Positions 21,301-27,300 of a stretch of 34,794 bases of DNA are shown one piece after another. The DNA is from Octopus sinensis (Eukaryota), in the NCBI RefSeq assembly GCF_006345805.1, contig NW_021835385.1, positions 1 through 34,794 on the forward strand, written 5' to 3'. Within the stretch, counting starts at the first letter, position 1, and each line of letters begins with the position of its first letter. A program made the position numbers.

Positions 21301-24300
21301 TAGTATCAAGAAATTAAACGAACTTACAATTCTTTTAAATTCGAAAGCCCCGTGAATGTACCTTCTTTGATGGTTGCAATATTGTTGTCCGAAAGATCTC
21401 TATAGCAGTAAAGAAAGCGTGAAATAGATTATATGGAAAACATTTGTGATACGACATCAAACACTGTGACTTCAGAATGAAAGGAAGAAAAAGAAGAAGG
21501 ACGAGGAGGAGGAGGAGGAGAAGAAGAAGAACAAGAAGAAGAAGAAGAAGAAGAAGAAGACGGAATGCGGTATGCAAACTCACATCACACATATCCCACT
21601 CACCCTTGTGGAAACATGATCAGAGAGATTATTCATTTTATATCGCTTCATTGTCACAAGCATATTAGAAAACACACAGGAAATATATCTGCAGTTTAAT
21701 TGTATCAGGCCAAATATTCCAGCTTACAAGTACAGTAAGTATTTCAGGTTTACAGATAGAATGTATGTGACAATATTATTCGAATATATATTTTCCGCTT
21801 CCACTTCAGTTGCTCTATTACATAAATAACGTGAAGTGAATGACAAAATTCGAAGTTGAATGATAATATCGAAACACGAAGGAGAATATTGAATTAGGAA
21901 ATGGAGGAGGATGCAAAATATAAAATAAAGGAATAATATAGTCACATTTCACACAGAACTACACTTATATATGAACATACACATATACTTCAGCTAAAAA
22001 TATCTGATGCAAACATGTAAACTCACAAACGTTACCATTTCTAATACAGATTCATATCAAAATCATTGAAATTTGGGGAACAAAAATGAGTTATTGAGAT
22101 GTGAATTGAAACAAAGCAAATACAATAAAAGAACATTATATTTTTCCTATTATTTCACTTTCTCTCTCAAATTCTCTCTTTCTTTCACATTGTCTATCTC
22201 TCTCCGATTTTCTTTGTATCTTCCTAAATCGTGTTCATTCTTCAAATTTGAATTGATTTTGCCCGGAACAGTCTGAAAATTTATACATTTGTGAGCTTAA
22301 TATCAGCATCAATTATTACTTTCGGAAAATAGTATCAAGAAATTAAACGAACTTACAATTCTTTTAAATTCGAAAGCCCCATGAATGTACCTTCTTTGAT
22401 GGTTGCAATGTTGTTGTCCCAAAGATTTCTATAGCAGTAAAGAAAGCGTGAAATAGATTATATGGAAAACATTTGTGATACGACATCAAACACTGTGACT
22501 TCAGAATGAAAGGAAGAAAAAGAAGAAGGAGGAGGTGGAGGAGAAGAAGAAGAAGAAGAAGAAGAAGAAGAAGAAGAAGAAGAAGAAGAAGAAGAAGAAG
22601 AAGAAGAAGAAGACGGAATGCGGTATGCACACTCACATCACACATATTCCCACTCACCCTTGTGGAAATATGGTGAGAGAGATTATTTATTTCATATCGC
22701 TTCATTGTCACAAGCATATTAGAAAACACACAGGAAATATATCAGCAGTTTAATTGTATCAGGCCAAATATTCCAGCTTACAAGTACAGTAAGTATTTCA
22801 GGTTTACAGATAGAATGTATGTGACTATATTATTCGAATATATTTTCCGCTTCCACTTCAGTTGCTCTATTACATAAATACGGAAGTGAATGACAAAATT
22901 CGAAGTTGAATGATAATATCGAAACACGAAGGAGAATATTGAATTAGGAATGGAGGAGGATGCAAAATATAAAATAAAGGAATAATATAGTCACATTTCA
23001 CACAGAACTACACTTATATATGAACATACACATATACTTCAGCTAAAAATATCTGATGCAAACATGTAAACTCTCAAACGTTACCATTTCTAATACAGAT
23101 TCATATCAAAATCATTGAAATTTGGGGAACAAAAATGAGTTATTGAGATGCGAATTGAAACAAAGCAAATACAGTAAAAGAACGTTATATTTTTCCTATT
23201 ATTTCACTTTCTCTCTCAAATTCTCTCTTTCTTTCACATTGTCTCGCTCTCCCCGATTTTCTTTGTTTCTTCCTAAATCGTGTTCATTCTACAAATTTGA
23301 ATTGATTTTGCCCGGTACAGTCTGAAATTTTATACATTTGTGAGCTTAATATCAGCATCAATTATTACTTTCGGAAAATAGTATCAAGAAATTAAACGAA
23401 CTTACAATTCTTTTAAATTCGAAAGCCCCGTGAATGCACCTTCGTTGATGGTTGAAATGTCGTTCATCCAAAGATCTCTATAGCAGTAAAGAAAGTGTAA
23501 AATAGATTATATGGAAAACATTTGTGATACGACATCAAACACTGTGACTTCAGAATGAAAGGAAGAAAAAAGAAGGAGGAGGAGGAGGAGGAGGAGGAGG
23601 AGAAGAAGAAGAAGAAGAAGAAGAAGAAGAAGAAGAAGAAGAAGAAGACGGAATGCGGTATGCACACTCACATCACACATATTCCCACTCACCCTTGTGG
23701 AAATATGGTGAGAGAGATTATTTATTTCATATCGCTTCATTGTCACAAGCATATTAGAAAACACACAGGAAATATATCTGCAGTTTAATTGTATCAGGCC
23801 AAATATTCCAGCTTACAAGTACAGTAAGTATTTCAGGTTTACAGATAGAATGTATGTGACTATATTATTCGAATATATATTTTCCGCTTCCACTTCAGTT
23901 GCTCTATTACATAAATAACGTGAAGTGAATGACAAAATTCGAAGTTGAATGATAATATCGAAACACGAAGGAGAATATTGAATTAGGAAATGGAGGAGGA
24001 TGAAAAATATAAAATAAAGGAATAATATAGTCACATTTCACACAGAACTACACTTATATATGAACATACACATATACTTCAGCTAAAAATATCTGATGCA
24101 AACATGTAAACTCACAAACGTTATTATTTCTAATACAAATTCATATCAAAATCATTGAAATTTGGGGAACAAAAATGAGTTATTGAGATGCGAATTGAAA
24201 CAAAGCAACTACAATAAAGGAACATTATATTTTTCCTATTATTTCACTTTCTCTCTCAAATTCTCTCTCTTTCTTTCACATTGTCTCGCTCTCTCCGATT

Positions 24301-27300
24301 TTTTTTGTATCTTCCTAAATCGTGTTCATTCTACAAATTCGAATTGATTTTGTTTGGTGCAGTCTGAAAATTTATACATTTGTGAGCTTAATATCAGCAT
24401 CAATTATTACTTTCGGAAAATAGTATCGAGAAATTAAACGAACTTACAATCTCTCTAAATTCGAAAGCCCCGTGAAGAAACCTTCTTTGATGGTTGAAAT
24501 GTCGTTCTTCCAAAGATGTCTATAGCAGTAAAGAAAGTGTAAAATAGATTATATGGAAAACATTTGTGATACGACATCAAACACCGTGACTTCAGAATGA
24601 AAGGAAGAAAAAGAAGAAAGATAACGAAGAAGAAGAAGAAGAAAAAAAGAAGTAGAAGAAGAAGAAGAAGACGAAGAAAAGTAGGAAGAAGAAGGAGAAG
24701 AAGAAGATGGGGAAGAAGAAAAGAAGAAGAAGAAGAAGAAGAAGAGAAGAAGAAGACGAAGAAGTAGAAGAAGATTAAGAAGAGGAAGCAGAATAAGAAG
24801 GAGAGGGGGAGGAGATGGGGAGGGGCAGAGGAGGAGGAGAGATGGGGGTTTAGGAGGAGGACAAAGGAAAGAATGACTGAGGAGGGGCAGCTGGGGGTAT
24901 CAGCAGAAGGAGCAGGAAGAGCATGAGAATGAGAATAAGAGGAAGAATTGGCAGAGAATGGAAAAGAGGGAGACCAGTGACGAAGCAGAAAGTAAAGAGA
25001 AGAAAAAGAAGTAGAAATAGAAGAAAAAAGAGGAAGAAAAAGAAGAAGAAGACAAAGAAGAGGTAGAAAAATAAAAAGAAAAAAAAGGGGTAGAAGAAGA
25101 AGAAAAAGAAAAAGCGGAAAATGTGAAAAAGACGAAGGGGAGGAGAAAAAGACGTAGAAGGAAAACAAGTATCAGAATAAGAGAAGAAAAAAAGAAGAAG
25201 CAGAAGAAAAGAAACAAGGAGAAATAGTAGAAGAAGAGGAAGTTGAAGGAGAAAAAGAAGAAGGAGAAGAAGACGAAGAAGAAGACGAAGAAGAGGAGGA
25301 AGAAGAAGAATAAGAATAAGAAGAAGCAGAAGAAGAATAAGAATAAGAAGAAGAATAAGAAGAAGAAGAAAAAGAAGAAAAAAAGTAGATGAAAACGAAG
25401 AAAAAGAAGAAGAAAGAGAAGGAGAAAGAGAAGAAGAAGAAGAAGAAGAAGAAGAAGAAAAGAAGAAGAAGAAGAAGAAGAAGAAGAAGAAGAAGAAGAA
25501 GAAGAAGAAGAAGAAGAAGAAGAAGAAGAAGAAGAAGAAGAATATACATTGAAAATCCTGATGTTCAAGACGAAACAGAAAATGTTCTCAAAATATCAGG
25601 AAATAATTCAAGGATAGAGCGATAAATTTTGGGCGAGAAGACATTGCTGAAAAATCAGGGAATATACGGAATCAGAATTCAACATATTCAAATGCACTCA
25701 TACACATTCTTATATTCATAGTATCAACGACGGAATGCGGTATGCACACTCACATCACACATATTCCCACTCACGCTTGTGGAAATATGGTGAGAGAGAT
25801 TATTTATTTCATATCGCTTTATTGTCACAAGAATATTAGAAAACACACGCTTACAAGAAATATATCAGCAGTTTAATTGTATCAGGCCAAATATTCCAGC
25901 TTACAAGTACAGTAAGTATTTCAGGTTTACAGATAGAATATATGTGACTATATTCGAATATATATTTTCCGCTTCCACTTCAGTTGCTCTATTACATAAA
26001 TAACATGAAATGAATGACAAAATTCGAAGTTGATTGATAATATCGAAACACGAAGGAGAATATTGAAATACGAAATGGAGGAGGATGCAAAATATAAAAT
26101 AAAGAAATAATATAGTCACGATTTTCTTTGTATCTTCCTAAATCGTGTTCATTCTACATATTCGAATTGATTTTGTTTGGTGCAGTCTGAAATTTTATAC
26201 ATTTGTGAGCTTAATATCAGCATCAATTATTACTTTCGGAAAATAATATCAAGAAATTGAACGAACTTACAATGACTTTAAATTCGAAAGCCCCGTGAAT
26301 AAACCTTCTTTGATGGTTGAAATGCTGTTGGAACCAAGATATCTAAAGCAGTAAAGAAAGAGTAAAATAGATTATATGGAAAATATTTGTGATACGACAT
26401 CAAACACCGTGGCTTTAGTATGAAAGGATGAAAAAGAAGAAAGATAACGATGAAGAAGGAGGAGGAAGAGAAGAAGAAGAAGAAGAAGAAGAAGAAGAAG
26501 AAGAAGAAAAAAGAGGAAGAAGAAGGAGAATTGGGGAGAGTGGAGGAGGATGAGATGTGGGAGTTTAGGAGAGACAAAGGAACGCATGACTGAGGAAGGG
26601 CAGCGGGGGTATCAGCTGAAGTACATGAGAGCAGAGAATTAAAATAAAGAGAATCGGCAGAGAATGGAAAGAGGAGAACCATTGCCGAACAGAAAGTACA
26701 GAGAATAAAAGAGAAGAAAGAAGAAGAGGAAGAGAAGAAGAAGAAAGAAGAGAAGAGAAGAAAATAAGAAGAAGAGAAGAAGTAAAGAAGAAGACGAAAA
26801 AGAAGAAGCTGAGAGAATATTGCTGAAGAAGAAGATGAAAAAGAAGAAGCTGAAGAAGAAGATGCTGAAGAAGAAGATGCTGAGAAGAAGCTGAAGCAGA
26901 AGAAGCTGAAGAAGAAGAATGATGCAGAAGGGGAAGAAGAAGAAGGAGAAGAGAAGAAGAAGAAGAAGAAGAAGAAGAAAAACAAGGCGAAGGAGAAGAG
27001 AGAAGAAAAGGAGAAAAAGAAGAAGAGAAAAAGAAGAGAAGAAGAAGAAGAGAGAAGAAAAATAGAGAGAGAAGAAGAAGAAGAAGAAGAAGAAGAAGAG
27101 AAGAAGAAGAAGAAAGACAAATTATTAAATAATGGAATAATATAGTTACATCTCACACAGAACTACACTTAATATTGATAATACTCACATACTTCAGCTA
27201 AAAATATTTGATGCAAACATGTAAACTCTCAAACGTTGTCATTTCTAATACAAATTCAAATAAAAATCATTGAAATTTGAGGCTCAAATATGAGTTATGG

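Follow-up and report, generated by a model that had tools for sequence, protein, structure and literature searches.

The nearest described counterpart of the locus reported here is the family of ROCO leucine-rich repeat (LRR) genes of the brown alga Ectocarpus, in which, according to the parts of Zambounis et al. (2012; PMC3341825) drawn on here, each LRR is encoded by one 72-nucleotide (nt), 24-residue exon, the number of such cassettes varies between recent duplicates, cassettes inactivated by stops or lost splice sites lie inside the array, and the LRR domain is under diversifying selection. We analysed a tandem array of LRR exons in a 34,794-nt stretch of Octopus sinensis DNA (RefSeq assembly GCF_006345805.1, contig NW_021835385.1, positions 1 to 34,794; hereafter the window, with positions counted on the forward strand), which holds the greater part of a minus-strand gene from an Octopus-lineage family of LRR-capped receptors of the adhesion G-protein-coupled receptor (GPCR) type. 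The LRR exons have diverged faster than the introns beside them, above all at codons of the predicted ligand-facing surface, and we consider tandem exon duplication followed by diversifying selection on that binding face the best, and a probable, explanation. Like the algal genes as presented in that source, the octopus array has one symmetric 72-nt exon per LRR and apparently inactivated cassettes (G, J and K below). The two systems are unrelated by descent, the algal genes belonging to the ROC-COR GTPase family of another kingdom and having LRR exons on the non-coding strand as well; in the window, BLAST on both strands found no reverse-strand LRR cassettes, and all nine copies that it recovered lie on one strand. 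The octopus array differs further in its head-to-tail 1-kb units, with measurable introns that provide an internal neutral clock, and in its partners, an LRR cap and a cysteine-rich module.

In plant resistance genes and receptor-like proteins the xxLxLxx segment of the LRR is hypervariable, with an excess of replacements at solvent-exposed beta-strand positions, and the genes undergo unequal crossing-over as well as tandem duplication; that ligand-facing LRR residues evolve fast is textbook knowledge for these genes and for lamprey receptors. No diversified recognition receptors are known in cephalopods except the expanded protocadherins. A general statement on the hypervariable residues of plant LRRs is found in the introduction of PMC3341825. 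Plant LRR domains are mostly encoded by one exon and compared between genes or alleles, whereas the comparison made here is between exons of one gene. The variable lymphocyte receptors (VLRs) of lampreys and hagfish share the capped LRRNT-LRR-LRRCT solenoid, the invariant scaffold and the hypervariable concave residues, but an incomplete VLR gene receives somatic copies of cassettes that have no splice sites, whereas the octopus cassettes are ordinary exons in order and orientation. Somatic assembly of the VLR type was rejected for this locus on the AG/GT borders, single strand and single phase of 10/10 cassettes, which are aligned with the downstream exons; a mutually exclusive exon cluster of the Dscam type was rejected because isoforms carry one to three cassettes in series. 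Slit, LGR and glycoprotein-hormone-receptor genes also have one LRR per 72-nt exon, but their exons are old and conserved and are not near-identical tandem units; LGR4/5 and Slit2 were among the sequence and fold matches obtained.

The family probably belongs to the octopus-specific adhesion-GPCR expansion termed 'group 3' by Ritschard et al. (2019; PMC6408891), for which the parts of that paper used here report tandem clusters, signs of positive selection and LRRs in 5 of 22 sequences. Both groups are tandem and of the Octopus lineage, and members of the window family were found with 7tm_2 and GPS domains. Those parts of PMC6408891 give no account of cassette-exon arrays, variable positions or an exon/intron contrast. 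A literature search at title and abstract level found no published account of an octopus LRR cassette-exon system, and the parts of PMC6408891 and PMC13428168 covered hold none; at the cassette-exon level the family appears to be undescribed.

Organization of the LRR exon array

Ten LRR exons lie on the minus strand, in the gene order J, I, H, G, F, E, D, C, B, A (33540 down to 21328; Table 1), each encoding one 24-residue LRR in 72 nt, with the exception of exon G (71 nt). The interval given in an earlier note on this DNA, 21328 to 26342, runs from the exact first base of exon A to the last base of exon E. Exons are preceded by (t)atag and followed by gt(a/g)agt, with AG/GT and an identical phase in 10/10; each starts at base 3 of a leucine codon and ends with bases 1-2 of another, so that phase 2 introns on both sides make every cassette frame-neutral. 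The residue plan per exon is x5-L-x7-x8-N-x10-I-..-F-..-L-..-L-x2-x3, and the 24-residue period with an LxxLxLxxN core is that of extracellular 'typical' LRRs. When exons were searched singly, 8 of 10 matched Pfam LRR_8 (E 2e-5 to 3e-3), all below the gathering score, as is expected for single repeats; in these one-exon Pfam searches J gave no LRR match (a spurious match only) and K none.

The exons sit in head-to-tail units of 1.0-1.9 kb, each composed of an LRR exon, unique intron sequence and a (TTC)n tract; in a self-BLAST of the window, 20839-23652 and 21847-24696 were 93.5% identical. Units fall into three kinds: those of exons A-E and I make up subfamily 1, those of F, G and J make up subfamily 2, and that of exon H is of a type of its own. 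Units A-D of subfamily 1 are the youngest, with introns 2-4% apart. In the gene sense the (TTC)n tract begins ~90 nt upstream of all nine subfamily 1 and 2 exons and ~105 nt upstream of exon H, and its length ranges from ~70 to ~950 nt across units. These tracts could promote unequal crossing-over or act as pyrimidine-rich splicing control elements. The last 450 nt of the window (34343-34794) are 90.5% identical to 30253-30691, downstream of exon H, which indicates a higher-order repeat in the array; a further H-type exon should accordingly lie ~90 nt past the window end. The window as a whole has ~33% G+C, many microsatellites and no N.

Divergence of exons and introns

Among A-E the exons differed by 5.6-19%, a range that reached 24% when I was included, compared with 2-8% for introns; for pairs inside one subfamily, F-J excepted, the ranges are 5.6-24% for exons and 2-5% for the introns beside them. 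Exons were more diverged than introns in 10/10 pairs among A-E (one-sided Fisher test, p<0.006 in nine); the pair A-B, with 4/72 exon and 18/575 intron differences, was not significant. The contention of the earlier note that LRR exons outpace their introns was thus borne out for A-E, and the pattern extends beyond the stretch it had marked, to 33540. Its hand comparison was also reproduced: B and C differ at 9/72 nt, changing seven codons, all by replacement; C and D differ at six codons (10 nt), again all replacements; A and B show three replacements and one silent change; and the introns of B and C, put at about 3% apart, differ at 23/881 aligned positions (2.6%). When I, F, G and J were taken into account, the exon/intron ratio of within-subfamily pairs was 2.8-5.4 in 12 of 13 (p<0.05 in 11 of 13), and in the 15 between-subfamily pairs merely 1.4-1.7, mostly not significant.

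Divergence binned along units I, D, C, B and A was 0-6% in 12/12 intron bins and 25%, 13% and 9% in the successive thirds of the exon, the step coinciding exactly with the splice sites. In subfamily 1, 24/72 exon columns and 50/532 intron columns were variable (p=3e-7); inside the exon, variable columns made up 12/15 of the columns of five concave codons and 12/57 of the remainder. These five codons were fixed a priori as the textbook strand positions x2, x3, x5, x7 and x8, and their concave placement rests on motif positions and on strand positions in an AlphaFold model.

Substitution rates and sites under selection

In a partitioned maximum likelihood (ML) analysis with proportional rates on the fixed intron ML tree, likelihood-ratio tests (LRTs) being computed by hand from log-likelihoods, the exon rate was 2.31 and the intron rate 0.82 (LRT 34.1, 1 df). 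With three classes the rates were 8.98 for concave codons, 1.13 for the exon remainder and 0.76 for introns (LRT 79.3, 2 df). Codon models (M0, M1a, M2a and an intron-calibrated model) were fitted with our own ML code to 8 exons of 23 codons, J and H being excluded and codon 14 of G treated as missing. M0 gave an omega of 2.1-2.3 (p 0.03-0.05 against 1), and M2a was preferred over M1a under three codon-frequency settings (LRT 20.5-24.8, p 4e-6 to 4e-5), placing ~26-34% of codons in a class with omega 5.6-7.1. Positions x5, x7, x8, x18 and x3 had naive empirical Bayes posteriors above 0.9.

In the intron-calibrated model, which fixes branch lengths and nucleotide process to intron estimates, the exon silent rate was 1.2-1.3 times the intron rate, with no significant difference, and the replacement rate was 4.2 times the intron rate overall (LRT 58.8). 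Concave codons evolved at 20.4 times the intron rate (confidence interval (CI) 13.3-31.4, LRT 107), or 28 times (CI 17-46) in subfamily 1 only, and the rest of the exon at 1.8 times (p=0.025). Equality of silent and replacement rates in the concave codons was rejected with 8 exons (p=0.011) and marginal with 6 (p=0.058). All five concave positions were variable, compared with 5/18 of the others (p=0.007). The enrichment of W, Y, H, D and R at exposed positions asserted in the earlier note was confirmed, these residues occupying 14/24 of the x5, x7 and x8 sites against 13.8% in family proteins. We read the combination of omega above 1 with a replacement excess at ligand-facing codons as positive diversifying selection. 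Separate exons in young tandem units place the intron, as a neutral yardstick, a few bases away from each exon, which makes the signal unusually clean, a ~20-fold difference that sets in at the splice sites.

A mutational hot spot, or targeted hypermutation, at the 5' and 3' ends of the exon could in principle produce a local excess of this kind without selection, and both the inclusion of multi-base codon changes and the silent rate in the five concave codons, ~1.7 times with a wide error, would suit it. Against this stand the rejection of equal silent and replacement rates just given (marginal in the smaller set), the alternation of hot codons with the invariant L4, L6 and N9 within 25 nt, and the lack of a transition bias or CpG pattern among the listed changes, which together leave it very little probability. 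Just as improbable in our judgement is that the exons only seem fast because the introns are held back by splicing control or homogenised by a concerted evolution that spares exons. The units are indeed very similar and a pyrimidine tract lies upstream of every exon, but exon silent sites evolve at 1.2-1.3 times the intron rate, omega exceeds 1 without reference to introns, and intron divergence is even over ~500 nt, indels included.

Under the preferred explanation, duplication followed by diversifying selection, units with a single 72-nt LRR exon were multiplied by tandem duplication, presumably through unequal crossing-over. Scaffold codons and silent sites afterwards kept to the intron rate, while replacement sites at x3, x5, x7 and x8 (also x18 and, more weakly, x10, x12, x15 and x2) were substituted ~20 times faster, in our reading because diversifying selection gives every new repeat a separate stripe of binding surface. 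Both a ligand and a selective agent are presumed in this scheme. Symmetric cassettes could be gained, lost, inactivated or skipped without a break of the frame.

Several observations weigh against this explanation. The sample is small (23 codons, 8 sequences, ~15 silent sites), and site-model tests can be inflated by codons that changed at two or three bases at once, as x8 did between B and C. In 6 of 15 subfamily 1 pairs, namely A-B and all five with exon I, pairwise dN/dS falls below 1; a dN/dS above 1, which the earlier note had made a requirement of its reading, therefore holds for the model estimates and fails for these pairs. Its statement that variation concentrates at ligand-facing residues likewise stood for x5, x7, x8 and x3, but x18, x12, x15 and x10 vary too, off the beta-strand face, and x2 is only weakly variable; x18 is semi-buried and may just be relaxed. 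The F-J pair is reversed, with 0/71 substitutions in the exon and 21/525 in the introns. Exon I carries three silent scaffold changes (pS 0.22-0.33) while its introns are just 3-5% different, a silent excess which hints at an imported exon or at one that predates its intron. The analysis assumed one tree, although incompatibility affects 44 of 91 pairs of informative sites in subfamily 1. Finally, exons G, J and K look defective, and the copy in the window may be partly decayed or its assembly affected by indel errors.

Gene conversion

Some of these observations would also be expected if gene conversion or exon shuffling were the chief driver, short tracts from the array or from 20-30 paralogous genes importing variable codons that selection merely retains. 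The incompatible site pairs and the excess of silent over intron divergence in exon I fit such a process, as do an x10-x12 block common to C and D, a CTG at L6 common to I and subfamily 2, and an identical tract from -24 to +112 in F and J (uncorrected p=0.006). Three of the seven differences from annotated O. vulgaris proteins described below (relative to D and A) match the neighbouring units E and C, which single-base changes explain equally well. The tests of recombination gave less: p-values of the pairwise homoplasy index (PHI)-like test were 0.10, 0.60 and 0.07, and the best GENECONV-like values (p 0.003-0.006) were lost after correction for 28 pairs. Overall, exon silent rates equal the intron rate, and intron bins next to the exon are no more diverged than distant ones, so that each conversion tract would need to stop within the borders of the 72-nt exon. 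In almost every exon the x7 and x8 codons are its own, and the window has no donor for them; any donor whose introns were as similar would itself display the exon excess. Conversion as the chief driver is unlikely on this evidence; as a contributor alongside selection it may have played a part. The earlier note had proposed diversifying selection or targeted mutation or conversion; the first is supported by the preference for M2a and the rejection of equal rates.

Variation across the family and structural support

The same positions stand out beyond the window. Of 39 Octopus proteins, 30 yielded 98 distinct LRRs, in which the four positions of highest entropy were x8, x7, x5 and x3 for both main repeat types, and 60 of 68 type-1 repeats had a distinct x5/x7/x8 triplet. 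Compared with the annotated O. vulgaris proteins of the locus, the window differs at 7/95 LRR residues and at 0/188 non-LRR residues (p=4e-4), the seven being x5, x8, x15, x18 (twice), x2 and x3. The AlphaFold model of protein P0003 has a predicted local distance difference test score (pLDDT) of ~90-98 over the LRRs and places a strand at x3-L4-x5 in each 24-residue repeat. Its best fold match in the PDB was hagfish VLR A29 (template-modelling score 0.81 on the target), followed by the Nogo receptor; nearest by sequence were IGFALS, LGR4, TLR3, LRIG1 and LRRC15.

Splicing and defective cassettes

Six 'partial' O. vulgaris proteins form the P0007 cluster, which we assign to the same locus as the window since 188/188 compared non-LRR residues are identical. 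These six annotated isoforms contain one, two or three of the last cassettes in series, and one of their repeats is identical in protein sequence to exon B. The O. sinensis proteins P0001 and P0002 differ solely in which cassettes they hold. Exon K is skipped in 6/6 annotated isoforms, an A-type exon being joined straight to the cap exon; this join fits the acceptor found in the window, ttacag followed by T, where TT+T gives the F that the annotated proteins have at this junction. According to the parts of PMC10700109 used here, PASA updates with Iso-Seq and RNA-seq were the source of the alternative forms in one O. vulgaris annotation, and the six isoform models would derive from that annotation. 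Alternative cassettes are presumably used in cells. Isoform P0024 reads past the donor of exon 5612-5695 into the intron (5543-5611, minus strand), where the frame is open in the window too (..AVSRYLPSLS..); it is an intron-retention form with a different C-terminus.

Three cassettes depart from the plan. Exon G has a 1-nt deletion that causes a frameshift and an in-frame stop, and is either a dead cassette or an assembly error. Exon J has no substitutions relative to F, but -1 and +1 indels 13 nt apart shift five codons and remove the conserved F. Exon K has AT instead of GT at the donor position, and read-through reaches a TAA at 17693-17695. All three may be genuinely dead, like some cassettes of the brown-alga arrays, or may reflect indel errors in a long-read assembly. 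Were the whole locus a decaying pseudogene or an assembly artefact, its differences would be noise, a reading to which these defects lend some colour, together with the nanopore assembly of O. vulgaris, polished with short reads according to the parts of PMC10700109 used here, which could blur units that are 97% identical. Noise would not single out the replacement sites of five codons and spare 13 scaffold codons; A-F, H and I have open frames and intact splice sites, the downstream exons are all intact, and six protein isoforms are annotated at the locus. We therefore regard decay or artefact as a very unlikely source of the pattern.

Receptor family and downstream exons

Exons of the family that follow the array were located in the window by tblastn in family order (K, the cap, two Cys-rich exons, 5612-5695 and 1463-1510), and those after K are all intact (Table 1). 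The common plan of family proteins is a signal peptide, an N-cap, a variable count of two LRR types, a terminal LRR type, a C-cap, a Cys-rich module and further modules; we take the full-length members to be adhesion GPCRs with an LRRNT-LRR-LRRCT ectodomain. The N-cap matches Pfam LRRNT in family proteins (E 0.005-0.01), and its position in the window gene, like that of the signal peptide, is upstream of the window end. The cap exon contains the four Cys, shares 85-100% identity with the corresponding region of family proteins and gave no match to Pfam LRRCT. We liken the cysteine pattern of the Cys-rich module to that of a Ly6/uPAR three-finger domain; its exon 6717-6905 scored E=0.26 (12 bits) against Pfam UPAR_LY6_2, with an AlphaFold pLDDT below 50 there, and exon 8853-8948 had no Pfam match. 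The module is present twice in P0004.

The cap exon matched 22 protein clusters and the Cys-rich exon 32, the named ones being only from O. vulgaris, O. sinensis and O. bimaculoides, and a 43-residue open frame around exon H matched six O. sinensis and O. vulgaris proteins, exon H being 83-91% identical to repeats in Octopus proteins. Automatic names of family proteins include 'LRR-containing protein 15-like', 'slit homolog-like' and 'adhesion GPCR G6-like'. Several members have GPS and 7tm_2, for instance P0013 (1091 residues), and the paralogues P0013, P0034, P0036 and P0037 carry PF00002, with or without PF01825. At the locus itself the window contains no GAIN/GPS or seven-transmembrane part, and the annotated proteins, which are partial and of at most 489 residues, carry neither.

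Table 1. Positions of LRR exons, downstream exons and microsatellite tracts in the window (TRF, Tandem Repeats Finder)
Feature	Position	Strand	Evidence or remark
Tandem LRR-exon array	20839-34794	-	Self-BLAST, unit alignments; extends past the window's high end
LRR exon J, subfamily 2	33469-33540	-	1-nt deletion and 1-nt insertion
LRR exon I, subfamily 1, ELYRNN type, intact	32312-32383	-	
LRR exon H, second repeat type NKISRIEKEMFQGLHNL, different intron context	30782-30853	-	
LRR exon G, subfamily 2, 71 nt	29427-29497	-	
LRR exon F, subfamily 2, NLHSNN type, intact	27564-27635	-	
LRR exon E, YLGSNS	26271-26342	-	~260-nt deletion in 3' intron relative to A-D
LRR exon D, HLWKND	24448-24519	-	
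LRR exon C, DLWMND	23406-23477	-	
LRR exon B, NLWDNN	22357-22428	-	
LRR exon A, DLSDNN, final array cassette	21328-21399	-	
LRR exon K, family terminal repeat type (..IEKYEDGAFLFL..)	17697-17768	-	tblastn
LRR C-terminal cap exon (..CGC..C..C)	13865-14022	-	tblastn; 100% identity to P0007
Cys-rich domain, exon 1, Ly6/uPAR-like	8853-8948	-	tblastn
Cys-rich domain, exon 2 (CC..LCN end)	6717-6905	-	tblastn
Downstream exon GWTKS..ENISRA	5612-5695	-	tblastn; no Pfam match
Downstream exon fragment HDLSTVTGTFRVEDCG	1463-1510	-	tblastn
Largest (GAA)n/(TTC)n tract	24604-25542	.	TRF
Other (GAA)n/(TTC)n tracts	20327-20840, 21488-21558, 22517-22611, 23566-23646, 26712-27114		TRF
Further (GAA)n/(TTC)n tracts	28033-28978, 30958-31803, 33625-34517		TRF

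The locus points to octopus-lineage receptors built for rapid change of the binding surface by cassette gain, loss, skipping and substitution, and it supplies a concrete family for tests of ligand and tissue specificity. A more far-reaching proposal, which we offer as speculation of rather low probability, is that octopuses have a germline-encoded, splicing-based repertoire of diversified LRR receptors, with dozens of adhesion-GPCR-type genes whose VLR-like ectodomains come from arrays of rapidly diversifying single-LRR cassettes, the number and combination of cassettes being chosen per transcript and highly polymorphic between haplotypes. Such a repertoire, if real, would be a functional counterpart of VLRs or Dscam in immune, chemotactile or neuronal recognition.

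Other sequences in the introns

Broken retroelement-like open frames lie inside long introns of the gene at 9984-10571 (minus strand) and 19100-20300; one of them matched RVT_1 weakly (E=0.017), and the others had no Pfam match. The intron separating the last two mapped exons is rich in microsatellites and contains a large palindrome at ~2060-4500, with arms at 2710-2911/3652-3853 and 2146-2320/4211-4385 that are 100% complementary; either a real inverted duplication or a fold-back error of the assembly may account for it. Two alike short open frames on the plus strand, at 449-560 and 4482-4590 (..LLKNTTRSPV..SSSQPHDRKLD..), suggest two copies of a small interspersed repeat on either side of the palindrome.

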